A stretch of DNA of 64,000 nucleotides from an uncultured Candidatus Saccharibacteria bacterium (GCA_964437465.1 CAYTGI010000003.1:5731-69730); one strand, 5' to 3'. Shown: positions 4,045 through 49,876, numbered from the stretch's first letter. Notes: generated by a model from the letters alone, not told the origin. Translations and numbers: made by a program.

Positions 4045-4047
4045 ATA

Positions 4048-9634: not shown

Positions 9635-10038
9635 TTTATTTCCTCGAAATTAAGTGCTAAGGAATTAATACAATATCTTTTTCCGGTTTTTTCAGCTGGA
9701 CCATCATTAAAAACATGTCCAAGGTGAGAACCGCAATTGGAGCAAATCACTTCATCTCTTATCATTCCGTGTGATCTATCTTCTTTTACATCAATTTTAT
9801 TTGAACTAATAGCATCATAGAAACTAGGCCAACCTGATCCTGATTCAAATTTAGTATGTGAGGAGAATAAGGGTTCAGCACAAACAATGCATTTGTATAT
9901 ACCAGTTTTTTTGTTACCTAGAAGATGTCCTGAAAAGGGAGCTTCTGTACCTCCTAATACACATACCTCGTATTGTTCTTTTGATAACTTTTCTTTTAAT
10001 TCTTGTTTTTTCTCTTCATCCATACTTAATGTTATCAA
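9631..10038 (-). CDS. msrB: Peptide-methionine (R)-S-oxide reductase MsrB
   Basis: Two CxxC pairs and the catalytic segment RSHGMIRDEVICSNCGSHLGHVFNDGP. Confidence 0.85.
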   Translation of the reverse strand: MITLSMDEEKKQELKEKLSKEQYEVCVLGGTEAPFSGHLLGNKKTGIYKCIVCAEPLFSSHTKFESGSGWPSFYDAISSNKIDVKEDRSHGMIRDEVICSNCGSHLGHVFNDGPAEKTGKRYCINSLALNFEEIK

Positions 10039-10088
10039 AATTTGAGGTAGATTAAATAAGTTTTATGCCTAATAAATTTATATTAAAA

Positions 10089-10348
10089 AACTTACGAGAA
10101 GTAGGGGTCTGGGGGACTTAGCAGTCAACCATGCGAGTAAGTTAGACTTGCTAAGCCCCCAGGACTTTTGCATACTTTTAGTCATAAAAGTATGTATATA
10201 AACTTTTTCTTATCCCTGTACTTTTTATAACTAAAAAGTACCAAAAAGTTTTGGGAAGAATTCCAGCCTATCTCTCAGTTACTCTTTGAGGCACGCATAT
10301 CAAGGAGAATTCTCCCCCTGCCTGCCGTCAGACAGGCAAAACCTCATG
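10089..10348. repeat. Copy A of a ~260-bp palindrome-rich repeat element (inverted relative to copy B)
   Basis: ~95% identical to the reverse complement of 26519-26775. Contains a long hairpin (ctgggggacttagca...tgctaagcccccag) and perfect palindromes catacttttagtcataaaagtatg, gtactttttataactaaaaagtac, ggagaattctcc, and a gcctgccg..caggc terminal hairpin. Confidence 0.85.
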
Positions 10349-10464
10349 ATACTATTACTTTATTTTGCTAGTTTGTAAAACTGGATATAAAACTTATGAT
10401 ATGTGATAAAAAACGTAACTCCTTTCTTCATACAACTTTCACATAACTTTGATAGAATCACTAT

Positions 10465-11142
10465 ATGAAGATATTAGTAGTAGAAGACGAAGATACAATA
10501 CGAGAGGTCGAAAAAGCCTATCTTCTTAGAGCTGGCTTCAAGATAATTGAAGCAGAAGATGGTAAAGAGGCATTAGAGAAATTTAAAAACGATAAATTTG
10601 ACTTAGTACTGTTAGATCTAAATTTACCCTATATTGACGGTATAGAAGTTTGTAAAAAAATTAGGCAAACAAGTAATGTTCCTCTTATAATGGCTACAGC
10701 TAGAGTTGAGGAGATTGATGAAATTGTTGGTTTAGAGATAGGAGCAGATGATTATATTAAAAAACCTTTTTCTCCTTCTGTTCTTGTCGCAAGGGTTCAA
10801 TCTCTTTTAAGAAGATCAGGACACGAAGTGATAGAAATTCAAGGTCTAATTATTGACCCTGAGAAAATGCTCGTAAAAGTTGCCGAAAAAGAAGTTAATC
10901 TTACGACAACTCAGTTCAATATTCTATACACACTTGCAAGTAAACCCGGAAAGGTATTTACTAGAGATGAAATTTTAGATAAAGCATATGACGAAACACT
11001 TCCTAAAGACGTACTTGATAGGACTGTAGATGCTCATATTAAAAGTATTAGAAAAGCTATTGAGAAAAATCCGAAAAAACCTGAATTTGTAATTACTGTA
11101 ATTGGCAAGGGGTATAAATTTAATGAAGAAAAAAGTAACTAA
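10465..11142 (+). CDS. OmpR-family response regulator
   Basis: Receiver domain (MKILVVEDE, LDLNLP, KP) plus C-terminal winged-helix DNA-binding domain (LTTTQFNILYTLA). Confidence 0.88.
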   Translation: MKILVVEDEDTIREVEKAYLLRAGFKIIEAEDGKEALEKFKNDKFDLVLLDLNLPYIDGIEVCKKIRQTSNVPLIMATARVEEIDEIVGLEIGADDYIKKPFSPSVLVARVQSLLRRSGHEVIEIQGLIIDPEKMLVKVAEKEVNLTTTQFNILYTLASKPGKVFTRDEILDKAYDETLPKDVLDRTVDAHIKSIRKAIEKNPKKPEFVITVIGKGYKFNEEKSN

Positions 11143-12322
11143 TACAAAAAACACATTTTTCAAAGAAGTTTATTCAGATTTTCTAAAGATTTCTAGAAAG
11201 ACAAGTGTAAAAATAGCAATAGTAGTATCTCTTGCAATGCTTACTCTTTTGGCTTTATTAAATTTAGTAGTTATAGAAAGAAGTAAAGATACTTTTGTAA
11301 ATGTTATTAAGACAATTACAATAGGTCCAGTTGATGGAGGTAATATAGTTTTAGAGAGGGAAGAAGTTAGGCAGTATAATATTCTCCATTTCTTTCAAGA
11401 TGGGACCGAAAGACCAACACCACTTCAAGAAGAATTTGTTGAGCAATTTCAGGCATCTTTAATAAGTGTTAGTTTGATCGCAATAGTTGTTTCATTGGTC
11501 ATCGGTTTTGTTTCCTCTCAGATTTTTACTAGGCCTTTAAGGTCCTTAAGCTCGGGTATGCGTAATTTAAGAAATAATGATTATAACCTAAGATTAAAAA
11601 ATATTGGTTCAGAAGAGTTTGATGAAGTAATCTGTGAGTTTAATAGACTTACAGATGAGCTATCTAAGGTTGAATCATTGAGAAAAGATTTAATTTCAGA
11701 CACCTCGCATGAACTTAAAACTCCAATAACAAGTTTACTTGGACAGTTAAACGGTATTAAAGAAGGTGTTTTTGAACTTGATGGAAAGAGAACAGACCTT
11801 CTAATAAATCAAGTAGAAAGATTAGCTGAAATAGTTAATAGACTTCAAGAATTTTCAAGAATACAAAGTAATCAGATAAAAATTAAAAAGAAAAGGATAG
11901 AATTCCTAACTTTTTTGAAAAATATTTTCTCTCAGTTTGAACAGGATTTAAAAAATAATAAGATTAAACAAAAATTTAATATTGATAAAGGCTTTGTTGT
12001 AAATGGAGATGAATACCTTCTCGAACAAGTTTTTTCAAACTTAATTCAAAATGCAATTAAATACTCAAAAGCAAGTAAAATTATAGTTACAGCAAATGAA
12101 AAATTAATTGAGTTTACTGATGATGGCATAGGAATTGCAGATACTGATAAGCCGTACATTTTTGAACGATTTTATAGAGTCGAAAAATCAAGAAATAGAA
12201 AAACAGGTGGTTTAGGTTTAGGCCTTGCTATTGTAAAAGAGATTGTAGAATCTCATGGATGGAAAATAAAAGTAAAAGATAATATTCCAAGAGGGACAAA
12301 GTTTATTATAAGCCTTCAATAA
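11102..12322 (+). CDS. Sensor histidine kinase (HAMP-HisKA-HATPase)
   Basis: Two transmembrane segments, H-box (SHELKTP), N-box (NLIQNAIKYS), G-boxes (DDGIGI, GGLGLGLAIVK). Overlaps the response-regulator gene by 41 bp. Confidence 0.82.
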   Translation: MARGINLMKKKVTNTKNTFFKEVYSDFLKISRKTSVKIAIVVSLAMLTLLALLNLVVIERSKDTFVNVIKTITIGPVDGGNIVLEREEVRQYNILHFFQDGTERPTPLQEEFVEQFQASLISVSLIAIVVSLVIGFVSSQIFTRPLRSLSSGMRNLRNNDYNLRLKNIGSEEFDEVICEFNRLTDELSKVESLRKDLISDTSHELKTPITSLLGQLNGIKEGVFELDGKRTDLLINQVERLAEIVNRLQEFSRIQSNQIKIKKKRIEFLTFLKNIFSQFEQDLKNNKIKQKFNIDKGFVVNGDEYLLEQVFSNLIQNAIKYSKASKIIVTANEKLIEFTDDGIGIADTDKPYIFERFYRVEKSRNRKTGGLGLGLAIVKEIVESHGWKIKVKDNIPRGTKFIISLQ

Positions 12323-12403
12323 AATTAACCTGAATTTCATACCAGTTTCATAAATATGTTTTAGTATTTATATTGTAAGGTATTATTTTTTAAATCCTTC
12401 TAT

Positions 12404-12910
12404 ATGAAAAAGAATAACATTATACAGATCACAGTAGTTTCAGCTGCAACAATTATAACTTTTACTGGTGCAACTTTAGTCATACCTAGAGCAGCTAAAG
12501 CAGAAGATTTAATTCCAAGTCAGACCCAAGTTCAGAGTTTTGAAGAGATAATTACTTCAGAGCCTAGAGCTCACAAAAAATATGACCATTTCTCTAAATT
12601 TCACGAAAATGGTATCAGAAATCATGCAAAAAGATTTGAAAAATGGAATCATAACAATGAGGTTTTAGAATATTTAGGTATAACTCGAACTGAAGCTCTT
12701 GAGGCAAGGATGAATGGAAAGAGTTTTAAGGATATTGCATTAGAAAAAGGGTTAGATGTTGAGGAGGTAGCTAATATATTTGAGGACAATCTTGTTGAGA
12801 AGTTAAACAAAAAGGTGGCTGATGGTAAATTAAGTACCCAAAGATATGAAAAAATAGTGAGTAATTTAGACGAATTAAAACAAAAATTTATAGAAGGGGA
12901 CTTTAATTAA
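12404..12910 (+). CDS. Hypothetical secreted protein
   Basis: N-terminal signal/transmembrane segment, helical and charged. No motif recognised. Confidence 0.35.
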   Translation: MKKNNIIQITVVSAATIITFTGATLVIPRAAKAEDLIPSQTQVQSFEEIITSEPRAHKKYDHFSKFHENGIRNHAKRFEKWNHNNEVLEYLGITRTEALEARMNGKSFKDIALEKGLDVEEVANIFEDNLVEKLNKKVADGKLSTQRYEKIVSNLDELKQKFIEGDFN

Positions 12911-12930
12911 GTATTCTTAATCATAATAAA

Positions 12931-12958
12931 AAAGAGAGCATATTGCTCTCTTTTTTTT
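12931..12958. terminator. Bidirectional rho-independent terminator
   Basis: Hairpin agagagc-atat-tgctctct flanked by an A-run and a T-run, between convergent ORFs. Confidence 0.6.
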
Positions 12959-12971
12959 GATTTAGTTCTAC

Positions 12972-13283
12972 TTACAAGAATGATATTGCAAGACCAATAA
13001 TAACCCCAACTAATAGAGCTACAATAGTAACTAGCAAATACTCACCCCCAGTATCAATTGATTTAAGTCCGTAATCAATTTTTTTAAGAACATTTGTGCT
13101 TTTCTTATCATCATCATTATGTGTATCAGCTTTTGGCTCATCCACTGCTCCCCCTGGAGTAATTGGTCTAATAACAGGTTTTGTTCCAACAGAAGATGAT
13201 GGAACGGACGCAATTTTTTCTTTACTTTCAGCATTGTCTTGACTTGTTCCGCTTGGAGCTAATGTTGTATTTAGTTTTTCCAT
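12972..13283 (-). CDS. Hypothetical tail-anchored membrane protein
   Basis: Low-complexity S/T/D-rich N-terminus and a C-terminal transmembrane helix. Confidence 0.3.
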   Translation of the reverse strand: MEKLNTTLAPSGTSQDNAESKEKIASVPSSSVGTKPVIRPITPGGAVDEPKADTHNDDDKKSTNVLKKIDYGLKSIDTGGEYLLVTIVALLVGVIIGLAISFL

Positions 13284-13570
13284 TTATGTAATTTTTTACC
13301 TTATATATTCTTACATTTATAAAAAATGAAGTCAAAGCATATATTTAGTTTGAAGTAGCAATGAAATCGAAAAATATTGACCTTTTTATTATTTCATTTA
13401 TATTACAAACACGTTCAAAACATCCATCTTCATTACATAAATCGCAGGGGTCTGAGATTATGAAACCATAAGGAAAAAATAGCATACAAAGTAGGAGTAT
13501 AATTCCTATTATTACATATTTTATTTTTCTCATGTTAGACCAACTATAATAGCCATGCCAAGAGTACTTA

Positions 13571-13954
13571 CTAATTCATGGGACATATTAAATAAATATA
13601 ATTTTTTACTTCGCCCCCCCAGATAACAGGGTTTAAACTTCCCATGGCTATAAAGCCAAACCAACTAATTATGGCTACAAAGAGTGTTAGAACTACATTA
13701 TCTAGTTCTTCTACATTTTGACCTGTATATGATATGAATAAAGCTAATGCAATTGCTGTAACTAATGCTTTAATCATTGATAAGATATAATCTAATGGAG
13801 AAGATTCTAAATCTTCAATCTTTTTACCTATTAAACCCATCCAGTAATTTCCAAATACTTTAGGATTAAACCATATCATTCCTAAAATAGTATTAAAAAC
13901 AACTGCTAGAACTAGGCCAATAACACTTATCTCAGCACCCAGTAGTTCAATCAT
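13571..13954 (-). CDS. Hypothetical integral membrane protein
   Basis: About four predicted transmembrane helices. Confidence 0.35.
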   Translation of the reverse strand: MIELLGAEISVIGLVLAVVFNTILGMIWFNPKVFGNYWMGLIGKKIEDLESSPLDYILSMIKALVTAIALALFISYTGQNVEELDNVVLTLFVAIISWFGFIAMGSLNPVIWGGEVKNYIYLICPMN

Positions 13955-13995
13955 AATTAAATTTTAATAAATATGTAATATTCTACTAAAAATAT

Positions 13996-16248
13996 TTAAT
14001 TACCTCCAAAATACTGCCATATAGCTTCTTTCACTTTTTCATCAGGAAATTGATAAATATAGTGAACCTGAACTTCACTAGTTTCAGAATTTATGCTCTG
14101 TCTTCTGACTATATCTTGATTGCTAGGTTCTCTTTCTTTTATTAGCCAGTTTTCCCTTATTCCAATACAAGATCCTGAACAGTTTGTTATTCCTCCACCA
14201 TAATATACGTTTTCTGGTTTTTCAAAAGGGGTTTTGGTTTGGAAATAGCTTGAAGATGAATCTATTTCTTTCATATAGTTTTTAAGCCAAGGAGCTATTG
14301 TAAATGCAGGCCAACCATATAATTGACTCATTGGTTCGTTATTATTGTTACCTGCCCAACCTAAGGTTACAAAATCTGGTGAATAAACTATTAAGAATGA
14401 ATCCTTATTCTCTTGTGTTGTTCCAGTTTTCCCAGATATGTCTCTATCATCCCAAGCAATTCGATCACCAGTACCAACATCTAAGTTCTTCAACGACTGG
14501 TTTAATAAATATACTGCTTCAGTATCAGCAATTTTTTTTGGATTAGGCTCTTTTTCGTAGATAATTTTTCCCTCTGAATCTTCAATTTTTAAAATAGGAT
14601 CTATTTCTACATACTCTCCTCCATTTGCAAATACTGAATACGCTCCAGCATGCTCAATAGGATATATATCACCTCCACCAAGAATTAGGGAAATTCCATA
14701 ATTTTGAACATCATTGTATGTTGTATAACCGAAAGCTTTTGAGGTTTCAATATATTCCTCTACTCCTATCATGTGCATAATAATTAGTGCGGGTATATTT
14801 CTAGATTCTCTAAGCATTCTCTCAGCATAAGCATTATATGTTCCTAAAAATTTAGAGTCCCAGTTCTTAGGGATATAATCTCCAAAAGATATAGGTATAT
14901 CAGGTAAGAAACTTCCAGGAGCTAGTAAGCTCTTTGAATAGGCTATATAATAACCTAGTGGTTTGTTAGTTGAGCCAGGAGATTGTAATGAAGTTAGAAT
15001 ATTAACCTCAGGATTGTATTTACAATTATTTCCTTTTTCATCACAGCCTATGTTACCTCCCTCAAATGATCTAGAACCACTCATTGTAATTATATCTCCT
15101 GTTTTTGGTATGATAGTCATTAATGCAGCGTTATATGCATTATATTTCTCATTATTGATAGAGGCGTTTAATGTGTACTCCTCTGCTTTTCTTTGAAGTT
15201 CGTAATCTAGTGTTGTATATATTTTATATCCGCCAGTTTGTAGATCGTCTAATGCAAATGGTTCTAACCCATTCTTATAATTTCTTTTTTGCAGTTGTTC
15301 TACAACATAATTTACAAAATGTCCCGATTTAATTTCTAGTTTTGGAGATTTATAATTTACTTGCTCTTTATAGGCACTGATTATTTTCTCAGGTGTTATT
15401 AAGTTTTCATCTTTGTAGCCTAGTAGTTGAAGTTGTGCATTAATAATTGAATGTTTTTGAAGCAACTGGGTATACACATATTCTTTTCTTTCTTCTAGGA
15501 GTTGTAGAGATAACTCATTATTTGAACTAATAGTTGGTGACAATTGTACAGGATCGTTAACAATTGCTGATAAAACTATTGATTCTGAGAAGCTTAAATC
15601 TGAAACATTCTTACCAAAGTAAAAGTCAGCAGCAGTTTTAATACCAATAATATTTGATCCATATGGTGTGATGTTGAAATATAGCTCCATCAAGCTTTCT
15701 TTTGGAAAATCTTTATCAATTCTAGAGGCAGTAAATATCTCCTCCACCTTTCTTGATATTGTAGGATCGTTTTTTTTAGTTAAAATTTTAACTATTTGTT
15801 GAGTGATGGTGCTTCCTCCGCATTTTTGATCAGTTGATACAGTTTTAATTGAGCATCTTACTATTGCATCAGCCCTGTAACCATCGTGAATAAAGAAAGT
15901 ACTATCCTCTGCAGCAAGAAAAGCAGCAATAGTATATGAATTTATCTCATTAAAAAATACTCTATCACTGTTGCTAAAGTCATTATGTAATCGAAATAAG
16001 CTTTCTCCTTTTCGATCATAGATTTCAGAAGCATAAGGGACTTCTGAAATTAAAGACTCAACATCAGGTATGGCTCTAGATCTCTCTTTTAAAAAATCAA
16101 GAACTAAAATAGATGAAATCTGTATTGTTAATATAGAGCTGACTATTAAAACTAAGATAATTAAGAATACTTTAGTATTTCTCTTTTTCCTTTTTGTTGG
16201 TTTTTTAAGCTGTGAAACTTTAGCAATACTTAAAGTTTGCTCAATCAT
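13996..16248 (-). CDS. Class A penicillin-binding protein (bifunctional glycosyltransferase/transpeptidase, PBP1A-like)
   Basis: GT51 motifs (AAEDSTFFIHDGY, GGSTITQQ) and transpeptidase motifs (SPGSTNKP, KTGTT). N-terminal transmembrane anchor. Confidence 0.85.
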   Translation of the reverse strand: MIEQTLSIAKVSQLKKPTKRKKRNTKVFLIILVLIVSSILTIQISSILVLDFLKERSRAIPDVESLISEVPYASEIYDRKGESLFRLHNDFSNSDRVFFNEINSYTIAAFLAAEDSTFFIHDGYRADAIVRCSIKTVSTDQKCGGSTITQQIVKILTKKNDPTISRKVEEIFTASRIDKDFPKESLMELYFNITPYGSNIIGIKTAADFYFGKNVSDLSFSESIVLSAIVNDPVQLSPTISSNNELSLQLLEERKEYVYTQLLQKHSIINAQLQLLGYKDENLITPEKIISAYKEQVNYKSPKLEIKSGHFVNYVVEQLQKRNYKNGLEPFALDDLQTGGYKIYTTLDYELQRKAEEYTLNASINNEKYNAYNAALMTIIPKTGDIITMSGSRSFEGGNIGCDEKGNNCKYNPEVNILTSLQSPGSTNKPLGYYIAYSKSLLAPGSFLPDIPISFGDYIPKNWDSKFLGTYNAYAERMLRESRNIPALIIMHMIGVEEYIETSKAFGYTTYNDVQNYGISLILGGGDIYPIEHAGAYSVFANGGEYVEIDPILKIEDSEGKIIYEKEPNPKKIADTEAVYLLNQSLKNLDVGTGDRIAWDDRDISGKTGTTQENKDSFLIVYSPDFVTLGWAGNNNNEPMSQLYGWPAFTIAPWLKNYMKEIDSSSSYFQTKTPFEKPENVYYGGGITNCSGSCIGIRENWLIKEREPSNQDIVRRQSINSETSEVQVHYIYQFPDEKVKEAIWQYFGGN

Positions 16249-16484
16249 AATATTTGATTGTATTTTGTTGATAAGTTATCCCTTAATTTAGATTAAGGAT
16301 GAGCGACTCATTCTGAGCCTTAAGCTAGACTTATTCAGGGTCGATAAATGTATCATTTAAGTTGTCGACATTATTAATTAATATGTCAACGAAGCTATAC
16401 TTAAATCTACATTAAGTTATTTATAACTGCAAGGGGATTTTAATAAATTAAGCGTAAAATTTTTACGTAACATCTGGGGACTTG

Positions 16485-16838
16485 TTATTCTAACCCTTTT
16501 TGTGTAAGTAGATTTTTGACATCTTCCTTCCATTTAAAAGTTTCTTTTGTATTTGCTTCAACAAAAACTGCATATTTGTCTAAGAAAGCTTGTAGCTTCT
16601 CAGACCCGCTTCTGGTGATGAATTGGTATGGCTTAACACCAGTTATACTATATTTACCTTCTACTCCCTTAAGTCGCAAATCAGTTAACTTTGATTTGAC
16701 TTCTTTTTTGATATCAGTTGGCATTTCTTTAATAATAGAAACCCAGAACTGGTGGATTCTATTTTGTTTATTAGCAGTAATTCGATAGTCTTCGAATTCC
16801 TCAGCTTTTACAAATAAATATTTAATATTCATATTCAT
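16485..16838 (-). CDS. Hypothetical protein
   Basis: 117-aa ORF with no recognised motif. Confidence 0.3.
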   Translation of the reverse strand: MNMNIKYLFVKAEEFEDYRITANKQNRIHQFWVSIIKEMPTDIKKEVKSKLTDLRLKGVEGKYSITGVKPYQFITRSGSEKLQAFLDKYAVFVEANTKETFKWKEDVKNLLTQKGLE

Positions 16839-16919
16839 TCAGATTTTATCATATTATTCCAAATCTGAATTGTTATCACACCTTTATTATGGTAGATTTT
16901 GAATAAATAGATCAAATAA

Positions 16920-18245
16920 ATGGGAATAAGGCTAAAAGTTGTTCTTACAAATTTCACAATATACCTTATCTATATGCTTATCGCGATAGGTATTGTTTCT
17001 GTATTTATTAGGGAAGAATTAAAAAAAGCAGCTCAGGAACAGAATATTGTCCTTGTAGAATCAGTAAATAATGTTTTTCTTAAGGATCTCTTGCTTTCTG
17101 AGTCTACAGTTGAGTTTTTATCTAATGATTCAAGGGTAAGTGAGTTTATATCTAACCAAACTATAGAGAGTACAAACAGAGTTGAAGATTTAATATTAGA
17201 AAATGTATCTAACATCCCTGGGCATGATTTTACTTATATTTTAGACACTGATGGACTAACAATATTCTCAACTGATTCAAGACTATTATATAATAACTAC
17301 TCATTTAGAGAATATTTTACAAATGCAATTGAGGGGGAAAGTGGGGCTTCTGTAGCTGTTGGAGTAACTACTAATGAACCAGGATTTTATTTCTCAAGTC
17401 CAATTTATGAGGAAGGAGATAGAGATACAATTATTGGTGTTTTGGTTATGAAATTTAATCCTTCTAATTTTTTTGATAGTGTTAACGAAACTCTTGATCT
17501 TGGTAAAAGTAGCCAAGTATCGATAGTGGATAAAAGAGGAATAATTTTCTTCTCTAGCCATAAGGAAAAACTATATAGCTTTTTAGGGCAACCTGGAGAA
17601 GGCATTATTCAAGAGACAAATGAGAAAAGGGTTTTGAACGAGCTTCCTATTAAAAGTCTAAATTATAATGACGCTCAAAACTATGTCACACACAGTGCTT
17701 CCGGTCTATTTCAGGTAAGGTCTCAAGATAATCCTAATAGTTTTTATACTATTCTAAAAGTTGATGATTATCCTTTCTTTATTTTCTCTTCCTTTAATAT
17801 TGGTGCGGTAGATTCAGCGTTACAAAATCTTTTATTAATTGTAATTTCAATAGTTCCAATACTTTTAATTGTTGGCGCGATTCTTACCACCTATATGACA
17901 ACTAAACAGCTAAAAAAACTTGATGAATTTATCAATATTACTACTGATGCAGCAAAGCGAAGGGCTAAAGTAGTAACAAACGAAATTGATCAAAGTGGTC
18001 AGAAGTTTGTAGAAAATTATAATAAGCTTATAGATGAGTATAACTCGTTGAAAGATAGCTTCGAGGGTGATTTAACTGACAAATTTAATAAATATATTGC
18101 TGAAATAGAAAGTCTTCAAGAAATTAATAAAACTTTGAGGGATAGACTGGACAATAAAATGGACTTGGATTCAAGACTTGGTAAGTATTTTGATGAAGAT
18201 ATTTTAGACAATGAAGATGTTGACTTAGAAAAAAAGGACATTTAG
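16920..18245 (+). CDS. Membrane protein with Cache-like extracellular sensor domain and C-terminal coiled coil (no output domain)
   Basis: Transmembrane segment, ~280-aa periplasmic domain, second transmembrane segment, then a coiled coil. Call rests on architecture alone. Confidence 0.3.
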   Translation: MGIRLKVVLTNFTIYLIYMLIAIGIVSVFIREELKKAAQEQNIVLVESVNNVFLKDLLLSESTVEFLSNDSRVSEFISNQTIESTNRVEDLILENVSNIPGHDFTYILDTDGLTIFSTDSRLLYNNYSFREYFTNAIEGESGASVAVGVTTNEPGFYFSSPIYEEGDRDTIIGVLVMKFNPSNFFDSVNETLDLGKSSQVSIVDKRGIIFFSSHKEKLYSFLGQPGEGIIQETNEKRVLNELPIKSLNYNDAQNYVTHSASGLFQVRSQDNPNSFYTILKVDDYPFFIFSSFNIGAVDSALQNLLLIVISIVPILLIVGAILTTYMTTKQLKKLDEFINITTDAAKRRAKVVTNEIDQSGQKFVENYNKLIDEYNSLKDSFEGDLTDKFNKYIAEIESLQEINKTLRDRLDNKMDLDSRLGKYFDEDILDNEDVDLEKKDI

Positions 18246-18375
18246 TCTATTTCTGCCTATTAACTTCATAAATGAAAAAAAGAACATTATTAATAATAAC
18301 TCCCTCTTATTCTACTGTTACTCAATAAAAAACACAATCTTCAATACTACTATAACTATATTTGAATGGTAAAAA

Positions 18376-18448
18376 AGCAGATGACGAGGCTCGAACTCGC
18401 AACCTCTTCCTTGGCAAGGAAGCGTTCTACCAATTGAACTACATCTGC
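18376..18448 (-). tRNA. tRNA-Gly (GCC)
   Basis: Reverse complement folds as a cloverleaf: GCAGATG acceptor, GTTC/GAAC D-stem, anticodon loop TTGCCAA, T-arm GCGAG-TTCGAGC-CTCGT. CCA not encoded. Confidence 0.85.
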
Positions 18449-18544
18449 TCTTACAGAATATTCTCTTCGTGAATTATATCAGATTTTGTAATTTTCAAGT
18501 TTTTAAAAGTTACACTAAAGACCATTTTTATCTATACTATATCT

Positions 18545-20047
18545 ATGAAGTTAAGTAATACATTTTTTTACATCTTTTGTGTAGTAATGATATTCATTTC
18601 TTCTGCTCTACTTCTATTTATTATTAGAAATATTTTTGTCATTTCAAATGCTCAAGAGGTAGTTTATATTCCACTAGATAGTGAAGTAGCAGTTTCATTT
18701 ATAGGTTCAGAAGTTGAAATCAACCCTTTTGTTTACATTAAGATGATTGATAATAATGGAACATACATAAATCCAGGTAGTTTAATGCCAAAGAGTTACA
18801 CTTATGAGGTAAATGAAGAACTATTGTTTAGAAATTTCGGAATTAATCTAGGTAATCAAAACTTTGCTCAAATTGATGAATCAAATAGAGTTATAAATTG
18901 TGAGAATGATACATATTACTTCGTAATAGATGAACAAAATTTTACAAAAGATCTACTAGATAATTTATCAAACGGGGTTAATTCTATAGAGCTATCGAAA
19001 TATATAGCTGAAGGGGAAACTGAAATGTTAGAGGTCTGTAAGAAATTTAACTCAGAAATAATTCAGATTAGCACAACACTTGAAAATAGTATTGGACTAG
19101 ATAAGACTTCAGTAAATAGTTATATCGGTCTATTTAATGAAAAGAATGATTATATATGGGATATATATAATCACAGTTTATTTGATTCTTATATTACCAA
19201 AGCAAAAGAAAAGTTTACCGTTGCTCCTTTCCCGGGTGCTTTTGAAGAGTTTGACAACTTTGTAGCTATTTATGTAAAACCCATAAACGGCAAAGAGATT
19301 AACGTTGAAAAAACTAAAGATAAAATCTCTAGATGGCTAAACAATAGAAATTCGATAATAGCTTTAGAATTTGACTCAGTTAATATTAATAGGAACTTTA
19401 ATAACAAGCCTGTTTACGACTTAACTAATTTAGTCGGTTCTGGGCAAACTAGAATAGATTTAATTAGGGATGGACAGGGTAATTCTGCTGTATATTTCGC
19501 AGAGCTGGGGTTAGAAGAAGTTCAGAAAGTAATAATTATGCCTGGTGAAGAGTTTTCTTATCTAAAGCAGATAGCTAAACAGCCTGGCTTAAATAGAACG
19601 GCTAGTGGAAGGTTAATTGGTATGGGATATTGCAATTCAACAACAACAATATTTAGAGCAGCTTTAGAAACTGGCTTACCAATAACTGATCGATCCTCTC
19701 ATGGAACAAATATTGCATCTTATGATTGGGGGTATCCAATGAATATTGTAGATTCCACATTTTATGCAGTTGAGGGATCTGAAATTGATTTAAAATTTAT
19801 TAATGACTTTGATTACCCAATTATGCTTTACTATGAAAAGGAGCAAGATGAAAATAATTTTCAGTATCATTACGTTCACATTTTTACCAGCTCAGAAGCT
19901 CAAAAAAGAAAGGTAGAACTATACGATTGGCGAAAATGGGGAGTTTATTCTCCTACACATTTCCAGGCTGAATTCAAAAGAAGAGTATGGGAAAATAATA
20001 ATGTAAAACTCGAGGATAGCTTTTTTAGTAGATATATAGATAGATAA
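18545..20047 (+). CDS. VanW-family protein
   Basis: N-terminal transmembrane segment. C-terminal segment GRLIGMGYCNSTTTIFRAALETGLPITDRSSHG resembles the VanW conserved core. Confidence 0.5.
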   Translation: MKLSNTFFYIFCVVMIFISSALLLFIIRNIFVISNAQEVVYIPLDSEVAVSFIGSEVEINPFVYIKMIDNNGTYINPGSLMPKSYTYEVNEELLFRNFGINLGNQNFAQIDESNRVINCENDTYYFVIDEQNFTKDLLDNLSNGVNSIELSKYIAEGETEMLEVCKKFNSEIIQISTTLENSIGLDKTSVNSYIGLFNEKNDYIWDIYNHSLFDSYITKAKEKFTVAPFPGAFEEFDNFVAIYVKPINGKEINVEKTKDKISRWLNNRNSIIALEFDSVNINRNFNNKPVYDLTNLVGSGQTRIDLIRDGQGNSAVYFAELGLEEVQKVIIMPGEEFSYLKQIAKQPGLNRTASGRLIGMGYCNSTTTIFRAALETGLPITDRSSHGTNIASYDWGYPMNIVDSTFYAVEGSEIDLKFINDFDYPIMLYYEKEQDENNFQYHYVHIFTSSEAQKRKVELYDWRKWGVYSPTHFQAEFKRRVWENNNVKLEDSFFSRYIDR

Positions 20048-21211
20048 ATGAAAAGAAAAATTATCATTACAGGGGGACATTCAACACCTGCTTTCGCAGT
20101 TTTAAATGAGCTACAAAGACATAGTGATTTGAAGGTTGTATGGGTGGGAGAAAAGTTTAATCAGTTGGGAAATAAAAATCCTTCTGCTGAATACACAACC
20201 GTTAAAGAAAAGTATAAAATCCGATTTATTAATCTTAAGTCAGGGAAATTAGTTAGAAAGTGGAATGCAGAAAATGCTGCTCATGGCCTATTCCAGTTAT
20301 TTAGACTTGTCGTTGGAAGCCTAAAAGCTTTATGTATAATTTTAACAGTTCGGCCAAGATTAATTTTATCTTTTGGAGGGTTTACAGCAGTCCCAATAGT
20401 GTTTTGGGCACATTTCTTTGGAATTAGAGTTATTACCCATGAACAAACCTTAGTTCCAGGCCTTGCAAATAAAATTATTGCAAAGTACGCAGATAAAATT
20501 CTTTTAAGTTGGTCAAGAGCTGCTCACGGTTTTCCAGAAAAAAAACTAATTCTAACTGGAAATCCCATTAGAGAAGAAGTTTTCCAAATTCAGTCAAATA
20601 TAACTGCAAACTTTGATGAGAATTTGCCCATTATCTACATTACTGGAGGAAACCAAGGGGCTCATGAAATCAACTCAAGAGTTTTTGCAATAATTAAAGA
20701 CCTTCTAGATATCGCTAATGTTATTCACCAGACAGGAAATTCAACTGTCACAAAGGACTATGAGAAAGCATTAGGGATTTGGGAAGAATTAGAAGATTAT
20801 AAAAAAGCAAGATATATTGTAAGATCCTACATGGGACCAGAAGTAATTGGTGAAGTTATGAATAGATCTGATCTAATAGTTTCCAGAGCTGGGGCAAATA
20901 CAATTACAGAGATCTTAGCTCTAGGTAAACATAGCATCTTAATTCCAATTCCATGGTCTTCTGGAAATGAACAAGAGGAGAATGCACAGTTAGTTGCTGA
21001 CGTAGGCCTTGCTTTAAGACTTACACAAAATGAAGAACTTGAGCCGATGGATTTGTATAATGCTATTGTTGATGGTTTAGATAGAGTTGAGAGAGGACTT
21101 GGTTTTAGAGGTAGAGATATGAAAAAGGTAAAAGAAGATGCTTCAAGCTTGGTTAAGCTAGATGCGGCTGATCTAGTGACTCAGGTCGTTCTAAAGATGG
21201 CTTACTCTTAA
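20048..21211 (+). CDS. murG: MurG-like undecaprenyldiphospho-muramoylpentapeptide beta-N-acetylglucosaminyltransferase
   Basis: G-loop IIITGGHSTPAFAV, and HEQTLVPGLANK and SRAGANTITEILALGKHSILIPIP segments collinear with E. coli MurG. Confidence 0.7.
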   Translation: MKRKIIITGGHSTPAFAVLNELQRHSDLKVVWVGEKFNQLGNKNPSAEYTTVKEKYKIRFINLKSGKLVRKWNAENAAHGLFQLFRLVVGSLKALCIILTVRPRLILSFGGFTAVPIVFWAHFFGIRVITHEQTLVPGLANKIIAKYADKILLSWSRAAHGFPEKKLILTGNPIREEVFQIQSNITANFDENLPIIYITGGNQGAHEINSRVFAIIKDLLDIANVIHQTGNSTVTKDYEKALGIWEELEDYKKARYIVRSYMGPEVIGEVMNRSDLIVSRAGANTITEILALGKHSILIPIPWSSGNEQEENAQLVADVGLALRLTQNEELEPMDLYNAIVDGLDRVERGLGFRGRDMKKVKEDASSLVKLDAADLVTQVVLKMAYS

Positions 21212-22277
21212 ATTTTTTAATCAAGTAATATTGAAACATAAGAATTACACAAATTGCTAAAACTATATAGTTCAGCAATAAGAAAGGATTTAAGATGCCG
21301 TCTACTAATGTTCCAAGAGCATTTTGAAAGTTATCTCTAAATTCATTATTTATAAAATTAAACTCATTTTCAGGCAGGTTTAATACGAAATTCTGTAAGA
21401 TAAGCACAATTATTACTGTTAATCCAGTCTGAATTAATACAGCCCTACCCAGTATCTTTAAAGATCTACTTAGATCTTTTCGATTATTTATAATAAACAT
21501 AACTACTAACAGTACTAAGAAAAGCAATAGATAATTTAAAACAACTTCAGTCGATCGATAAGCATCTTGTAGAAATACTAATGATCTAGAAATGTTAGAT
21601 ATTAATTCAGGATTTGTATCAAAAGCTATTAATAGTTCTCCTATTTTTGAATTATTTTGAATATTTAAAACCGAGTTAGAAATATCTGTATAATCAAGAG
21701 ATTGGATTTCTGAATCAATTCCTTCAGGAAGACAATCTAAAGTTGTCGGTACTCCATTGGATAAATTAACTTGTATTTCAAATTGTCTTTCATTTGAGCA
21801 GATAGGAAACTCAGCAACTTTGTTACCTAGATCTCTTTGTAAGTTAGGTACTGTGTTATCAATTCTTTCAGCAATTTTTTCTGAGGGGAAGAAGATTAGG
21901 AAATCAGCAGCTTCGAATTTTACATATTCAATTAACCTATCGATATTAGTATCTACAATCTCTTGGGTTAGGGCAGGATCAAGAAAACTAATTATGCCTT
22001 CTTGAACTATAGGTAGAAATTCTGAAGTTATTGGAGATACATCAACTAACTCACTATTTCCTCCAGCAAGACTAGAGGAAATTAATCTTTCAATCTCTTC
22101 GCTATTTTCTTCTCCAATATATTCTGGAATATCAGAATAAAGTCCACTCTCTTCTATAGTGTTTTTATATAAATCTCCATCTCTTAGGGCATAAAATAAA
22201 CCTGCTAGGGGTGTCAGAGTACTAAGCAATAACAAAATTATTGAAATTAGAAAGCCGTTAACGATTTTCTTCATCAC
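21153..22277 (-). CDS. Hypothetical membrane protein
   Basis: N-terminal transmembrane segment plus about three C-terminal transmembrane helices. Convergent with murG, overlapping it by 59 bp. Confidence 0.35.
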   Translation of the reverse strand: MMKKIVNGFLISIILLLLSTLTPLAGLFYALRDGDLYKNTIEESGLYSDIPEYIGEENSEEIERLISSSLAGGNSELVDVSPITSEFLPIVQEGIISFLDPALTQEIVDTNIDRLIEYVKFEAADFLIFFPSEKIAERIDNTVPNLQRDLGNKVAEFPICSNERQFEIQVNLSNGVPTTLDCLPEGIDSEIQSLDYTDISNSVLNIQNNSKIGELLIAFDTNPELISNISRSLVFLQDAYRSTEVVLNYLLLFLVLLVVMFIINNRKDLSRSLKILGRAVLIQTGLTVIIVLILQNFVLNLPENEFNFINNEFRDNFQNALGTLVDGILNPFLLLNYIVLAICVILMFQYYLIKKFKSKPSLERPESLDQPHLA

Positions 22278-22323
22278 TCTGATTATATTGAAATTAATAT
22301 CGATTTGAAAGCATTAATCTCAT

Positions 22324-23688
22324 TTATACATAATAAAACTTAGACTTCTTGAAATCATTTAAAATCTCTTCTTTATCATAAGGGCTTACAAACCATATTC
22401 TTGGTTTACTTTTGTTTAAAAACTTTTGAATAAATAGCTTTAATTCTTCTATCTGAAGTTCTTTCAATGCTTTATTCCCTTTTTTATAGTCATAATACAT
22501 GTAAGGTGAATTATCTAATGCTTCTACACCAAATCTTTCTGCATAATCATCAATAATAACTTCGTTACTTCTAAATATATGGTTGCTAATTATATTATTA
22601 AACCATGTTTTTCCATACTCGCTGTTAAAAAAATCTTCTACTCTGTTATAAATTGCATCGTAAGATGCATTTAATGTCTTTATTAAATTATCTCTATCAC
22701 AGGTAAACTTAAATCCTCTAATTTTTTGATCTATGCCAAATGTTACATCATATGTGTCTGCGCCGTAAATAAGCTGTTGTTCTTCTCTTAGAAATTGGTG
22801 ATTAATCTGCCAAAAGAACGAATTCAGTAGTATTGTCATTTTATTTTCTTTATATTCTATCTCTTCTGGGAGTGAATAATAGAAGCCAATTGAAATAAAA
22901 ACTCCACTCATGTTTTCTTCTTTAAAATGGTCGTAATCAAATTCTTGTTCAACATTAACTTTGTTTATTCTATGTTTTCTTCCTGATTTTTTTATATTAG
23001 AATATCTTTCTACTAGCTTTAATTCCTGTTCATCTAGTATTGTGGGTGACTGAATAGTCAGAATTAGATTTTCACTAGATATTATTGCGTTCTTATATTT
23101 TATTAAATCATTAACAGAAATTTTTTTAATACTGTCTTTTGTTCCGATTACTCTTTCTCCTCTATAAGAATAATACTTGCTAATGAATTTTCGTTCGTAC
23201 TGTAAATCTGGATCTCTATCTTCTTTATTATATCTTTCCAGTTCACCTAAAATTATCCCTCTTTCTTTTTCTATATAGTCTTGAATTTTACTGTCAGGAA
23301 AATTAATTATTCCCCAGAAATATCTTAAAATTCTTTTGGATGCTTTTTTATTACCATTCCCGTAGAAATATATGTATTTGAAAGATGTTGAGGCGTTAGC
23401 GCTAAAACCAGCTCTGTATTTAGTTCCAAACACAAAACCATCAAACTTATCTTTATCTGGAATATAGTCATTAGGATTACCGAACATTACATGTTCAAGA
23501 AAGTGCGCTGTACCATGAGGTACTCCAATTTCAGTTTCAAAAGCACTACCACCAGCGCATACAATTGAGAAATTAAATTCTATACTTTTAGGATTTATTG
23601 AATGTATTAATTCAAGACCATTCTTAAACACATATCTCCTGTTTTCTACTTTGAGGTTAAAGTCTTTCCACTTTTTTATTAGTTTCAT
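22324..23688 (-). CDS. M16-family (insulinase-like) metallopeptidase
   Basis: Inverted zinc motif HFLEHVMF (HxxEH) near the N-terminus. Two-domain size (454 aa). Confidence 0.6.
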   Translation of the reverse strand: MKLIKKWKDFNLKVENRRYVFKNGLELIHSINPKSIEFNFSIVCAGGSAFETEIGVPHGTAHFLEHVMFGNPNDYIPDKDKFDGFVFGTKYRAGFSANASTSFKYIYFYGNGNKKASKRILRYFWGIINFPDSKIQDYIEKERGIILGELERYNKEDRDPDLQYERKFISKYYSYRGERVIGTKDSIKKISVNDLIKYKNAIISSENLILTIQSPTILDEQELKLVERYSNIKKSGRKHRINKVNVEQEFDYDHFKEENMSGVFISIGFYYSLPEEIEYKENKMTILLNSFFWQINHQFLREEQQLIYGADTYDVTFGIDQKIRGFKFTCDRDNLIKTLNASYDAIYNRVEDFFNSEYGKTWFNNIISNHIFRSNEVIIDDYAERFGVEALDNSPYMYYDYKKGNKALKELQIEELKLFIQKFLNKSKPRIWFVSPYDKEEILNDFKKSKFYYV

Positions 23689-23732
23689 ATTTTTGATGAT
23701 ACCATGAAAAAGAGATACACTAACAAATCTAC

Positions 23733-25706
23733 TTACTCTACACTAGTATCTCTAAACTCACCGAGTTTAGCGAGATCGTCCGGATTTGTAGTTATTAGAT
23801 TATGTTCATTTTCACTTGCAACAACCTGAATAGCAACATGGTTAGCGCCCGCAAAGAAAATACCCTGACCTATTCCTGCTGAAAGTAAGAAAGACTTTTC
23901 TCCTTCAGTTAAATAGAAAACTTTTTGAAGTTTGTCTATCGCAGCTGGAGCCTGTTTTAAAAGAATCTGCATTGAAGCATTATTAACAATCGCCTTACCA
24001 TAATCTGAACTTAAGAAGTCATCTACGTCTTGTGTAATTGTAGTAAGACCTAATCCATATTTCCTAGCCCTTTTAGCGATTTGATATACAAAATAGGCAG
24101 CATCTTCATACTGCATCATAATCCATGCCTCGTCTATAATTAATAACCTCTTTCTTTTATCTTTCTTGATCTTAGTCCATATAAAATCAAGCATTGAGTA
24201 CATCGCCATAGGTCTTAGATCAGGGGTTAAGTCTCTAATACTAAAAGCTGTAAAAGTATTATGGATATCGATGGTAGATTTTTGATCAAAAACACCAGCT
24301 GCACTACCTTTAATGTACCTTTCAAGCCTTCTAGCCATCGAATGAGCTTCTTCTTCAGCCATTGCGTTAAGAACCTTATATAGATCTTCTAGTAGAGGAG
24401 GTTCATTAGCATGAGTAGATTTATCAGGGGTAATTCCTTTCTCAGAATAAGTAAGAATTATAGCTCTATCTAAAATAGCTGCTTCCTCTCCTGTAAGTTG
24501 GCCTCCTAGCATTATTCTAATAAGTCCCGAAACAGATCTAATCTTAAATCTTAATTCATCCTCATCTTGATCGTAGAGTCCTGATAACTCAAAAGGGTTA
24601 AGTTTTTGTTCTCCGTCCTGAGAAAACGATATGTATTCACCTCCAACAGCCTGACATAACCTATCGAACTCTTTTTCAGGGTCAATAATTATTATATCAA
24701 CACCAAGCATTAAAGATCTAACTGCCTCAAGCTTAACTGTGTAAGATTTACCAGAACCAGATGCAGCCAAAACAACTGAGTTTGCATTCGGCAAAGAAAA
24801 TCTATCAAAAATCACTAAAGAGTTATTGTGTAGATTAATTCCATATAGAACTCCTTTTTCCATTGTTAGCTCACTAGAGACAAATGGGAATGTACTTGCA
24901 ATAGCTGTCGTATCCAAGTTTCTAGTCATATTTATTTTATCCAAACCATACGGAATAGTTGTTTGGAAACATTCTTCCTGTTGTAAGGTTGCAACTTTTA
25001 TAATTAATCCAATTGTTGCTGCTGTCGATTCAAGATTTTTTGCAACTTGGTCTAGCTCATCCAATGTATCTGCGTGAATTGTTAAATACATTCCGTACTG
25101 GAAGAACTTCTCATTTCCAGCTGCTAGTTGTTGTTGTAAGTTAAGTGCGTCCTGCAGTTTTTGTTTAATTATTGGATCTCCTTGTTGACCAGCTTTGATT
25201 TCTAGGTTAATAGTAGCTTGAAATTCAGCAATTCTTCTTTTTAAAAGTTTAAGCATTTCAGTTGTATCTTTTGGATAGTAGAAAGTACTTATATCAATTG
25301 GATATTCAAAATTAATTAGTGGTTCTAGCCAATTAGGATTAACAATACTTGGATAATCTACCACGAAGTATGATCTAAAATATCTACTACCTATAACAAT
25401 ATTACTAAAGTTAACTTCAATAGCTGAAGGAGCAATTATATCCTTTACATCAATTAGACCACTAGCAAAATCTTGGATAGCTTTTTGTTCTTTTGATAAA
25501 GCTTGAGCCTCTTTGGAATTTACAGGTTGCTTACTCCTTTTTCCTGTAGAAAATTTTCTTCTTTGGTTATTAATTTTTTGACTTTGAAGTTGTGGATTTG
25601 CCCCTCTTTGAACTACCTGCATCCTTTGAGGTAACTGAGATTGTTGAGTATTACCTACCACTTCCTTTCCATTCTTTTTTGTCTTAAATATGTCAAAAAT
25701 TCCCAT
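23733..25706 (-). CDS. VirB4/TraC-family type IV secretion/conjugation-like ATPase
   Basis: Walker A VVLAASGSGKSY and Walker B LLIIDEAWIMM. N-terminal VirB4-like domain preceded by a Q-rich low-complexity segment. Confidence 0.6.
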   Translation of the reverse strand: MGIFDIFKTKKNGKEVVGNTQQSQLPQRMQVVQRGANPQLQSQKINNQRRKFSTGKRSKQPVNSKEAQALSKEQKAIQDFASGLIDVKDIIAPSAIEVNFSNIVIGSRYFRSYFVVDYPSIVNPNWLEPLINFEYPIDISTFYYPKDTTEMLKLLKRRIAEFQATINLEIKAGQQGDPIIKQKLQDALNLQQQLAAGNEKFFQYGMYLTIHADTLDELDQVAKNLESTAATIGLIIKVATLQQEECFQTTIPYGLDKINMTRNLDTTAIASTFPFVSSELTMEKGVLYGINLHNNSLVIFDRFSLPNANSVVLAASGSGKSYTVKLEAVRSLMLGVDIIIIDPEKEFDRLCQAVGGEYISFSQDGEQKLNPFELSGLYDQDEDELRFKIRSVSGLIRIMLGGQLTGEEAAILDRAIILTYSEKGITPDKSTHANEPPLLEDLYKVLNAMAEEEAHSMARRLERYIKGSAAGVFDQKSTIDIHNTFTAFSIRDLTPDLRPMAMYSMLDFIWTKIKKDKRKRLLIIDEAWIMMQYEDAAYFVYQIAKRARKYGLGLTTITQDVDDFLSSDYGKAIVNNASMQILLKQAPAAIDKLQKVFYLTEGEKSFLLSAGIGQGIFFAGANHVAIQVVASENEHNLITTNPDDLAKLGEFRDTSVE

Positions 25707-25708
25707 TT

Positions 25709-26380
25709 TTAAATACTTATAATTCCTCTTTCAATATCTTGTTCTCTAAGGTTTAGTATTTCAAGTCCAGTTTGATCTGGCTCATACATAGAGTAATAAA
25801 GCTTAATTAGTTCATCATTTTGTAGTTGTCTAGCAGCTATTCCTAGATTACCAAACTGTTTAAGAATATGATCTCTTTTGGGAAATAGTTCTTCTTTTGC
25901 TTTAACAACTAGTTCTGAAATATTTACAATTTTCTTCTCTTTTCCCAGTAGCTGTCTCATCCATCCTGTTGTTATGATTGGAAGCCTATTCGTAGGTATT
26001 ATTGCATAAAAACGTTTATCTAAAACTTGAGTTGACTGAGTCAAGTTAGTTATAAAGTCCTGATATATAGATACTTGATTAATTATCGCATCACTTGTAA
26101 TTCGCATTTTGTACTTATCTAGTAATTTAAGATATTTTGCAATGTCAGTTCTTTGAGTTCTAATTACAATTTGAATTGGGAAGGTAATTGAATTTAAAAA
26201 TGCTGCAAAAGAACCAATCCTAGCATCCTGTTCTTTTCCATCCAAAAGATCAAAGTTTAAGGAGGTTGTCTCTATTACAACAGAAACTTTACCGTTTTTT
26301 AGAACAACTAAATCATCTCTTATATCTTCTACATCAAGGTGTTGTTGTGTACTTACTTTTTTTGGATCAAATATTCCCAT
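25709..26380 (-). CDS. Hypothetical protein, possibly a stand-alone VirB4 N-terminal-domain-like paralog
   Basis: 223 aa, immediately upstream of and co-directional with the VirB4-like gene. Shares the N-terminal MGIFD start and resembles VirB4 N-domain texture. Weak. Confidence 0.3.
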   Translation of the reverse strand: MGIFDPKKVSTQQHLDVEDIRDDLVVLKNGKVSVVIETTSLNFDLLDGKEQDARIGSFAAFLNSITFPIQIVIRTQRTDIAKYLKLLDKYKMRITSDAIINQVSIYQDFITNLTQSTQVLDKRFYAIIPTNRLPIITTGWMRQLLGKEKKIVNISELVVKAKEELFPKRDHILKQFGNLGIAARQLQNDELIKLYYSMYEPDQTGLEILNLREQDIERGIISI

Positions 26381-26518
26381 AGTTTTAGATATTTTGCCTA
26401 TACTATCTTACAAGGTAGGGATAAGAGAATCAATTTTTAGTATATATGTGTCTCTAAATTGATTATGTTTTATATCTACTAGCTAGTTTCTTCAACTAGC
26501 AAAATAAAGAATAAGTAA

Positions 26519-26775
26519 CATGTGGGGTTTGCCTGCCGGCAGGCAGAGGGAGAATTCTCCTTGTTAAGCGTGCCTCAAAGAGTAACTGAGAGATAGGCTG
26601 GAATTCTTCCCAAAACTTTTTGGTACTTTTTAGTTATAAAAAGTACAGGGATAAGAAAAAGTTTATATACATACTTTTATGACTAAAAGTATGCAAAAGT
26701 CCTGGGGGCTTAGCAAGTCTAACTTACTCGCACGGTTGACTGCTAAGACCCCCAGACCCCAACTTCTCGTAAGTT
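26519..26775. repeat. Copy B of the ~260-bp palindrome-rich repeat element (inverted relative to copy A)
   Basis: Reverse complement aligns along its full length with 10089-10348, with about 12 mismatches or indels. Confidence 0.85.
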
Positions 26776-26872
26776 TGTTATTGCTACTTTATTAGATATA
26801 AAACTAATTATTTTGTATACTCATTCAGTTTTAAGGTGACTTTGGGTCGCTTTGTTGCTATAATATGGTGTC

Positions 26873-39989: not shown

Positions 39990-39994
39990 AAAAA

Positions 39995-40348: not shown

Positions 40349-40365
40349 CTTCTAATTATATAGTT

Positions 40366-40788: not shown

Positions 40789-40838
40789 TTGTCATTAAAT
40801 GGTAACATTGGTATAATCCCACAATTAATTTCTTTCTA

Positions 40839-42340: not shown

Positions 42341-42364
42341 ACATTAGTATAGAGGTTTGGTGAG

Positions 42365-49860: not shown

Positions 49861-49876
49861 CTGTAATTTAGAAGAG

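Follow-up and report, generated by a model that had tools for sequence, protein, structure and literature searches.

Gene context of the inverted repeats and the corresponding sites in relatives

A pair of near-identical inverted repeats, each about 340 bp long and separated by 16.2 kb of chromosome, was analyzed in a 64,000-nucleotide stretch of DNA from an uncultured Candidatus Saccharibacteria bacterium (GCA_964437465.1, CAYTGI010000003.1:5731-69730; the whole stretch is called the window here, and the repeated sequence the element). The best matches of the TraC-like protein and of the response regulator encoded at the locus were found in metagenome-assembled genomes of Candidatus Dojkabacteria, and the host genome is placed, by such sequence matches, in this lineage of the Candidate Phyla Radiation (CPR). 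The genes between the two copies encode a response regulator and a histidine kinase, PBP1A (with Transgly and Transpeptidase domains), tRNA-Gly, VanW, MurG, an M16 peptidase, a VirB4/TraG-type ATPase and the TraC-like protein, and domain and gene scans of the interval agreed with the genes that an earlier sequence-only reading had listed there. Each copy lies between two divergent genes and is oriented alike relative to the inner gene, an agreement that carries no statistical weight with n = 2. The coordinates of all features are collected in Table 1.

The repeats had first been placed at 10089-10348 and 26519-26775. Aligned with the reverse complement of the second interval, the first gave 260 columns with a mean column identity of 97%, above the 80% line drawn in the sequence-only reading, and the mismatches were confined to columns 15, 28, 43 and those beyond 208, so the repeats are real and align end to end. 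These intervals are homologous and at the same time too short. An independent repeat search returned inverted arms at 10055-10334 and 26530-26809 (280 nt, 94% complementary), together with a second collinear piece at 10342-10387 and 26480-26525 (46 nt, 76%), and the homologous unit reaches approximately 10056-10397 on the forward strand and 26464-26807 on the reverse strand. Local blastn of the element within the window (E = 3e-129) returned these two copies and no third one in the 64 kb.

The nearest relatives that we compared were GCA_964635995.1 (loci L006, L088 and L090), a contig from ENA (L005) and GCA_020429545.1 (L002 and L091), with about 72% nucleotide identity to the window. Contig CAZWRA010000007.1 (L088 and L090) was collinear with the window from 37 kb down to 7 kb in a single orientation, with the gene order tRNA methyltransferase, 123-aa protein, TraC-like, VirB4-like, M16, MurG, VanW, tRNA, PBP, DUF1761, histidine kinase, response regulator, MsrB, GSDH and PAS kinase. 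The same order was found in L005 across its locus up to GSDH, without the M16 gene. As relatives that lack the repeat carry the block and both outer flanks in the same order and orientation, the block is neither an island nor inverted, which bears out the earlier view that it is not a mobile island, and the 16.2 kb between the copies is, judged from this synteny, ordinary ancestral chromosome. One could instead read the repeats as inverted ends that bound a 16.9-kb composite transposon or genomic island, since inverted identical elements surround a block with conjugation-type ATPase genes. We regard this as scarcely credible, because in L005, L088 and L090, which lack the repeats, the interior adjoins the outer flanks with the gene order unchanged, the interior is of a housekeeping kind (PBP1A, MurG, tRNA-Gly), and no transposase or integrase was found inside the 16-kb block. 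The sole recombinase of the window, a tyrosine recombinase of the Phage_integrase family (41252-42340), lies 15 kb from the block, and L005 likewise encodes one beside the peptidyl-tRNA hydrolase gene. The M16 peptidase and VanW genes of the closest relative were called as short fragments (L088:13305-14103 and 17091-17687) that are possible pseudogenes.

The two spacers that hold the copies are much longer here than their orthologs. The spacer on the TraC side measures 492 bp here versus 115 bp in L006 and 96-109 bp in L002 and L005, and it does not exceed 233 bp in 29 of 32 Dojkabacteria loci. The spacer between MsrB and the response-regulator gene measures 441 bp here versus 94 bp in L090, and in L005 it is 33 bp as called or about 86 bp when the MsrB start is re-read. 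Because both orthologous spacers are only about 90-115 bp in relatives, each copy is a separate insertion of about 340 bp between divergent promoters. The promoter-proximal sequences of the response-regulator and TraC-like genes align with those of the relatives and are located outside the element. The sequence-only reading had missed that each copy is itself, as these spacers indicate, an insertion of this size with terminal inverted repeats, resembling a miniature inverted-repeat transposable element (MITE). In another relative (L094, Logan SRR33375180), the MsrB-response-regulator spacer (327 bp there) carries an unrelated insertion of about 225 bp at 2723-2947, which ends in imperfect inverted repeats of about 31 nt rich in GCACGTA/TACGTGC. 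Small insertions of such a kind therefore do occur in this spacer.

Independent support for the left outer junction came from the Logan assembly of run SRR7048222 (L086), which represents the same organism and matches the window at 100% identity over the MsrB flank and the initial 62 nt of the left copy. The 901-bp contig stops within the element, about 15 nt short of the stretch that is identical in the two copies, as expected at a repeat. At 165 nt, this stretch exceeds the length of many short reads. Read pairs would therefore decide how the copies are oriented to each other, and an assembly in which one copy was duplicated or a segment mis-joined could in principle give the same picture. 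Such an artefact is very improbable, since the copies differ in their ends and in their unique flanks, the left outer junction was reproduced by the Logan assembly, and the gene order matches the synteny of the relatives.

Termini, hairpins and coding capacity of the element

The terminal inverted repeats are perfect in both copies (11 bp in the left, 12 bp in the right), are positioned at the limits of homology and are built around a common GTTTTAT core, with TAAGTTTTATATC as the consensus of the four termini. The minimum free energy fold of the left copy, computed from the single sequence, is closed by the stem that these repeats form. At each of the four termini, a TA dinucleotide stands 0-1 nt beyond the GTTTTAT core and is indistinguishable from an extension of the terminal repeat, TA being its own reverse complement; a TA adjoining the terminus fits three of the four ends. 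ATAAT flanks the right copy only. The empty sites of the relatives are too diverged for a base-by-base alignment, and the 5' flanks of the two copies (GATTAAAT and ACAAAATA) have no fixed target in common. The element shows several properties of a MITE: a small size (342 and 344 bp, that is, less than about 600 bp), no coding capacity, terminal inverted repeats at its exact ends, and presence or absence at orthologous sites.

Two other readings of the termini were rejected. In a Xer/dif-like reading, TTATGTTTTAT resembles a XerD arm, but this likeness concerns one terminus only and neither copy occupies a dif site. The GTTTTA...AAAAC ends also suggested a CRISPR repeat or a tracrRNA-like sequence, but there are no cas genes and no array, and the ends are not conserved.

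Between the termini lies a string of hairpins, including a small internal one (AACTT-ACGAG-AAGTT). Hairpin B has a long, G+C-clamped stem followed by TTTT, folds with a dG of -31.2 kcal/mol in each copy and is present in both consensus folds. It was not called by a simple terminator scan, probably because its loop is 11 nt and the scan is limited to 3-8 nt, and hairpin B with its U-tract resembles an intrinsic (Rho-independent) terminator and probably acts as a terminator on the forward strand of the element, as predicted from its sequence. Two palindromes with like half-sites, C and D, follow. The corresponding pattern TACTTTT-N4-12-AAAAGTA has four matches in the window, all of them within the two copies, versus 0.05 expected. 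Downstream of C and D is hairpin E, which is long, imperfect and contains two GAATTC sites. The stem of hairpin F is kept in the right copy and its loop differs by an indel, and the stem of the subterminal hairpin G is preserved between the copies (with one U-A changed to U-G) despite the 76% identity of this stretch. The element folds more stably than shuffled sequences by a z-score of -6.3 on either strand, and its G+C content (36-37%) compares with 30% for other intergenic DNA and 32% for the window.

Open reading frames (ORFs) in the element encode only 20-38 aa and are not conserved as coding, and the longest one holds three substitutions between the copies, all non-synonymous. On this evidence the element is non-coding, as had been proposed from the sequence alone, with no credible ORF. 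A type I toxin or other small protein was rejected as a candidate, the peptide not being hydrophobic and all of its substitutions being non-synonymous. No promoter-like site common to both copies was found, a candidate -10 box of the left copy being mutated in the right one. Against Rfam 15, only four tRNAs in the window scored above the gathering threshold, and the best matches of the element itself were eukaryotic miRNA models, with E no lower than about 0.3.

The identical core and exchange between the copies

The two copies differ at none of the 165 core positions and at 10 of the 84 positions in the adjoining well-aligned flanks (Fisher P = 1.3e-5), and none of 200,000 shuffles in a longest-run permutation reached the observed identical run. 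Outside the core, the outer 5' part is 81% identical and the outer 3' part about 75%, so that the ends are diverged by 12-30%. This profile, with P of about 1e-5, agrees with the concerted maintenance suggested in the sequence-only reading. The same divergence of the ends disfavors the recent spread that it had offered as an alternative.

Selection on the hairpins would leave the loops free to vary. At positions unpaired in single-sequence folds, however, we counted differences at 0 of 57 in the core and at 6 of 25 in the flanks (P = 5e-4), which argues that selection on structure alone does not explain the perfect core. On the sequence profile, the best explanation of the core is that the copies underwent gene conversion with each other or that the centre was replaced very recently. 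Where short repeats convert each other, diverged edges are to be expected.

From these observations we favor, with no more than moderate confidence, the interpretation that the pair represents two copies of a non-autonomous, MITE-like mobile element of about 340 bp whose centre was later homogenized by gene conversion. Each copy would have inserted independently into the short neutral DNA that separates two divergent promoters, the left one between MsrB and the response-regulator operon and the right one between the 122-aa gene and the operon of the TraC-like and VirB4-like genes. Mobilization would have occurred in trans, by a transposase encoded elsewhere and possibly at TA targets. After insertion, the ends may have diverged while conversion between the inverted copies kept the central 165 nt identical, and the same recombination could also invert the 16-kb block, of which no inversion was seen.

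Conversion would imply that the copies recombine, so that a crossover inverting the block is possible. Inverted tracts of such length and spacing suffice for RecA-dependent crossover. Compatible with the MITE-like interpretation, the pair could thus act mainly as a substrate of homologous recombination, with the 16-kb block flipping between orientations in the population. The inverted copies, their 16.2-kb spacing and the 165-nt identical tract fit such flipping, and repeated exchange should leave just such a perfect core between diverged ends. The inner operons would not be cut off by an inversion, as each has its own promoter on the inner side of the element. The assembled orientation is, however, that of two relatives without the repeat, so that no inversion has been fixed; no invertase adjoins the repeats, and gene conversion needs no crossover. 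We therefore consider a flipping block quite unlikely. The large inversions proposed in the sequence-only reading are only a possibility, since none has been fixed relative to the two relatives. A site-specific invertible segment of the Hin/Gin/Fim switch or shufflon type was rejected, as no recombinase lies within or beside 10-27 kb.

Table 1. Coordinates of the two copies, their internal features and the flanking genes (positions in the window)
Feature	Position	Strand	Remark
Left copy	10056-10397	+	342 bp; between the divergent MsrB and response-regulator genes
Right copy	26464-26807	-	344 bp; between the divergent TraC-like and 122-aa genes
Identical core, left	10132-10296	+	165 nt, 100% identical to 26568-26732 (-); putative gene-conversion tract
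Identical core, right	26568-26732	-	165 nt; alignment columns 78-242
Left copy 5' terminal inverted repeat, ATAAGTTTTAT	10056-10066	+	pairs with ATAAAACTTAT
Left copy 3' terminal inverted repeat, ATAAAACTTAT	10387-10397	+	pairs with ATAAGTTTTAT
Right copy 5' terminal inverted repeat, GTTTTATATCTA	26793-26804	-	pairs with TAGATATAAAAC
Right copy 3' terminal inverted repeat, TAGATATAAAAC	26467-26478	-	pairs with GTTTTATATCTA
Hairpin B, GGGGTCTGGGGG...CCCCCAGGAC then TTTT	10104-10169	+	long G+C-clamped stem-loop; right copy about 26692-26760 (-)
Palindrome/hairpin C, TACTTTTAGTCATAAAAGTA	10173-10192	+	right copy 26672-26691
Inner palindrome/hairpin D, TACTTTTTATAACTAAAAAGTA	10219-10240	+	half-sites as in C; right copy 26624-26645
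Hairpin F, TGCCTG-loop-CAGGCA	10319-10338	+	right-copy stem TGCCTGCCGGCAGGCA
Subterminal hairpin G, CTAGTTT-GTA-AAACTGG	10368-10384	+	right copy GCTAGTT-GAAGA-AACTAGC
MsrB gene	9631-10023	-	left flank of the left copy
Response-regulator gene	10465-11142	+	right flank of the left copy
TraC-like gene	25709-26380	-	inner flank of the right copy
122-aa gene	26873-27241	+	outer flank of the right copy

Searches for relatives and comparison with known repeats

Further copies were sought with patterns, alignments and models. An exact core 18-mer had no match in the genome collection, and a core 22-mer and a gapped stem pattern had none each in metagenomes. Three patterns run on viral contigs gave a single match (L001), which the alignment showed to be due to chance. 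Neither blastn nor nhmmer found the element in 85 loci of Dojkabacteria and other CPR (1.35 Mb), and on additional loci nhmmer matched only L086, the window's own junction. No second full element was found by blastn, nhmmer or a covariance model in 1.4 Mb of DNA from Dojkabacteria and other CPR, and blastn of the element found no match in phage and plasmid collections. A 46-aa stop-to-stop peptide, used to find copies called as spurious ORFs, gave no candidates in the protein database, and the terminal-repeat motif occurred elsewhere in the window and in the relatives at chance level only. The dispersed repeat family expected in the sequence-only reading is not shown, as these searches, which covered 64 kb of the source genome, left two copies only.

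The covariance model of hairpins B-D gave one match outside the window, at L017:263-371 on the reverse strand (contig JBDSRX010000075.1; 23.5 bits, with a rough E of about 0.003 over 1.4 Mb). This sequence has the same GGGGTYTGGGG/CCCCA clamp as the element, with an upper stem that is wholly different yet fully complementary, followed by a U6 tract (TTTTTT) and then the identical 14-mer TTTTGCATACTTTT and AAAAGTATG, which form a C-like palindrome. A regular expression for the conserved B-C strings matched L017 only. The match is in antisense position, with the end of a CobW_C-domain gene on one side and the promoter of a Fur-family/ZIP operon (a zur/ZIP zinc locus) on the other. To judge from these shared strings, it is probably related to the B-C module by descent. 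The look-alike keeps the idea of a functional terminator or small RNA alive, and one sequence cannot settle it.

We weighed the reading that the repeats are a mobile or duplicated small-RNA or terminator cassette, with a 5' leader, hairpin B and its U-tract as the terminator and hairpins C-E, in which RNA function would account for the conservation and the inverted ends would serve as a closing helix and not as transposase sites. The UUUU that comes after hairpin B (dG -31 kcal/mol) on the forward strand, the fold z-score and the L017 match, with its shared clamp, replaced but complementary upper stem, U6 tract and downstream strings, would all fit such a cassette. So would the finding that 6 of the 10 substitutions in the aligned part fall among the 33% of positions unpaired in single-sequence folds, although this enrichment is weak (P of about 0.07, by our own binomial estimate from the counts). 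However, one strand folds as well as the other, Rfam gives no match, the copies have no promoter-like site in common, and the single homolog is partial, being limited to hairpin B and one palindromic hairpin. The perfect 165-nt core, with its 57 unpaired positions, is moreover not the pattern that RNA selection gives, and we consider the cassette unlikely.

Several observations also weigh against the MITE-like interpretation that we prefer. The words family and mobile rest on two insertions, as only two copies were found. No target-site duplication is demonstrable, the candidate TA being inseparable from the terminal repeat. A parent insertion sequence, that is, a related autonomous one with the same termini, was not detected: the 58 ORFs of the window include no transposase, and neither the window nor the loci of the relatives (1.35 Mb) contain a matching pair of terminal repeats, including any inverted pair of the motif spaced 0.1-4 kb apart in those loci. 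The termini are the most diverged part of the element here, whereas in typical MITEs they are the best conserved. As the nearest relatives are only about 72% identical, the empty sites indicate insertion since a fairly old split and not recent mobility. Finally, the L017 look-alike with its complementary upper stem suggests that a structured RNA or terminator may be under selection here, as opposed to a purely selfish DNA. A bolder combination, in which hairpins B-C are an undescribed structured RNA or terminator module of at least two Dojkabacteria lineages that was spread by a MITE-like vehicle, and ongoing exchange makes the 16-kb block naturally invertible, seems improbable to us. Other RNA or protein-binding roles of the palindromes are putative and unproven.

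Among known repeats, the element most resembles small transposase-less elements in its general description, not by compared sequence: like Correia/NEMIS of Neisseria and RUP of Streptococcus pneumoniae, it is small, non-coding and bounded by terminal inverted repeats, is intergenic near promoters and lacks a transposase. These elements also have stable hairpins, terminator-like or promoter-like signals and a possible TA target in common with it. It differs from them in length (about 340 bp versus about 100-155 bp), in its shorter terminal repeats (11-12 bp versus about 26 bp in Correia), in forming a string of separate hairpins and not a single long foldback, in having two copies and in ends that are more diverged than the centre. 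BOX of the pneumococcus, ERIC and REP/BIME are likewise non-coding intergenic repeats of a few hundred bp made of hairpin modules, and they affect transcript termination or stability. They occur, however, in tens to hundreds of copies and generally without clear terminal inverted repeats, whereas the present element has two copies, defined inverted ends and empty orthologous sites.

PATEs derived from IS200/IS605 share a small size, the absence of coding sequence and subterminal hairpins with the element, and a Y1 transposase gene is present in a related Dojkabacteria genome (L002). In contrast to PATEs, which lack terminal inverted repeats, carry like left and right hairpins on one strand and insert 3' of a fixed tetra- or pentanucleotide, the element has inverted termini, no fixed 5' target and no similarity to the L002 locus. 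In that locus (L002:10945-13273, GCA_020429545.1), the IS200-type Y1 transposase gene directly follows a shortened VirB4-like gene (555 aa versus 646-657 aa). Inversions and gene conversion between inverted repeats such as rrn operons, IS copies and tuf genes involve, as here, near-identical inverted copies separated by kilobases, with identity peaking in the middle of the repeat; the element is only about 340 bp, however, and shows no inversion relative to the relatives.

On the MITE-like interpretation, the element is an ordinary kind of bacterial small mobile repeat without detectable full-length sequence relatives. Genomes of the CPR, or Patescibacteria, are small and gene-dense, and the part of the open literature that we searched contained no paper on MITEs in this group. 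The locus offers a clean case of a small non-coding element entering two promoter-proximal spacers, and a conversion footprint between copies 16 kb apart would suggest that short repeats undergo homologous exchange in a genome of this type. In annotation, the copies should be taken neither as borders of an island nor as regulatory DNA that was passed down together with the flanking operons; in assembly, they mark a site where the orientation of the 16-kb block depends on read pairs.

Other features of the window were recorded in passing. A replication terminus at the maximum of the GC skew (22 kb) was considered and rejected, since the skew follows the gene strand by our reading of the skew profile against the gene map. 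At 3772-4677, a pair of DUF6922 and AbiEii genes (the latter a type IV toxin-antitoxin nucleotidyltransferase) is flanked by the genes of a NUDIX hydrolase and a DEAD-box helicase. The 430-bp gap at 32641-33070 is common to the closest relative (L088:3972-4271), which has a called gene of 99 aa on the opposite strand, and is absent in L005 and L002 (gap of 74-78 bp). Its conservation looks codon-like by our reading of the alignment, and it probably holds a small ORF missed by the 70-aa ORF map.

The surroundings of the tyrosine recombinase gene differ from those in L005, where it is adjacent to the peptidyl-tRNA hydrolase gene. In the window, four small forward-strand ORFs at 39447-41255 (180, 117, 140 and 138 aa, with no Pfam match) lie between the two genes, and a gene-free gap of 501 bp (42341-42841) follows the recombinase. 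Downstream of tRNA-His (49785-49860), the region 49861-49930 contains a G+C-rich hairpin at about 49881-49902 and, at about 49899-49926, a 28-nt imperfect copy of the 3' half of the tRNA (matching 49818-49845 with about four mismatches), which resembles a scar left by integration at this tRNA gene. Near the end of the window, a 2999-aa ORF on the reverse strand (54411-63410) lies in a stretch of raised G+C content (about 38% versus 32%) and contains a 53-nt motif repeated about 1 kb apart at 58267, 59353 and 60316, with a sortase gene (63578-63961) located just upstream on the same strand.

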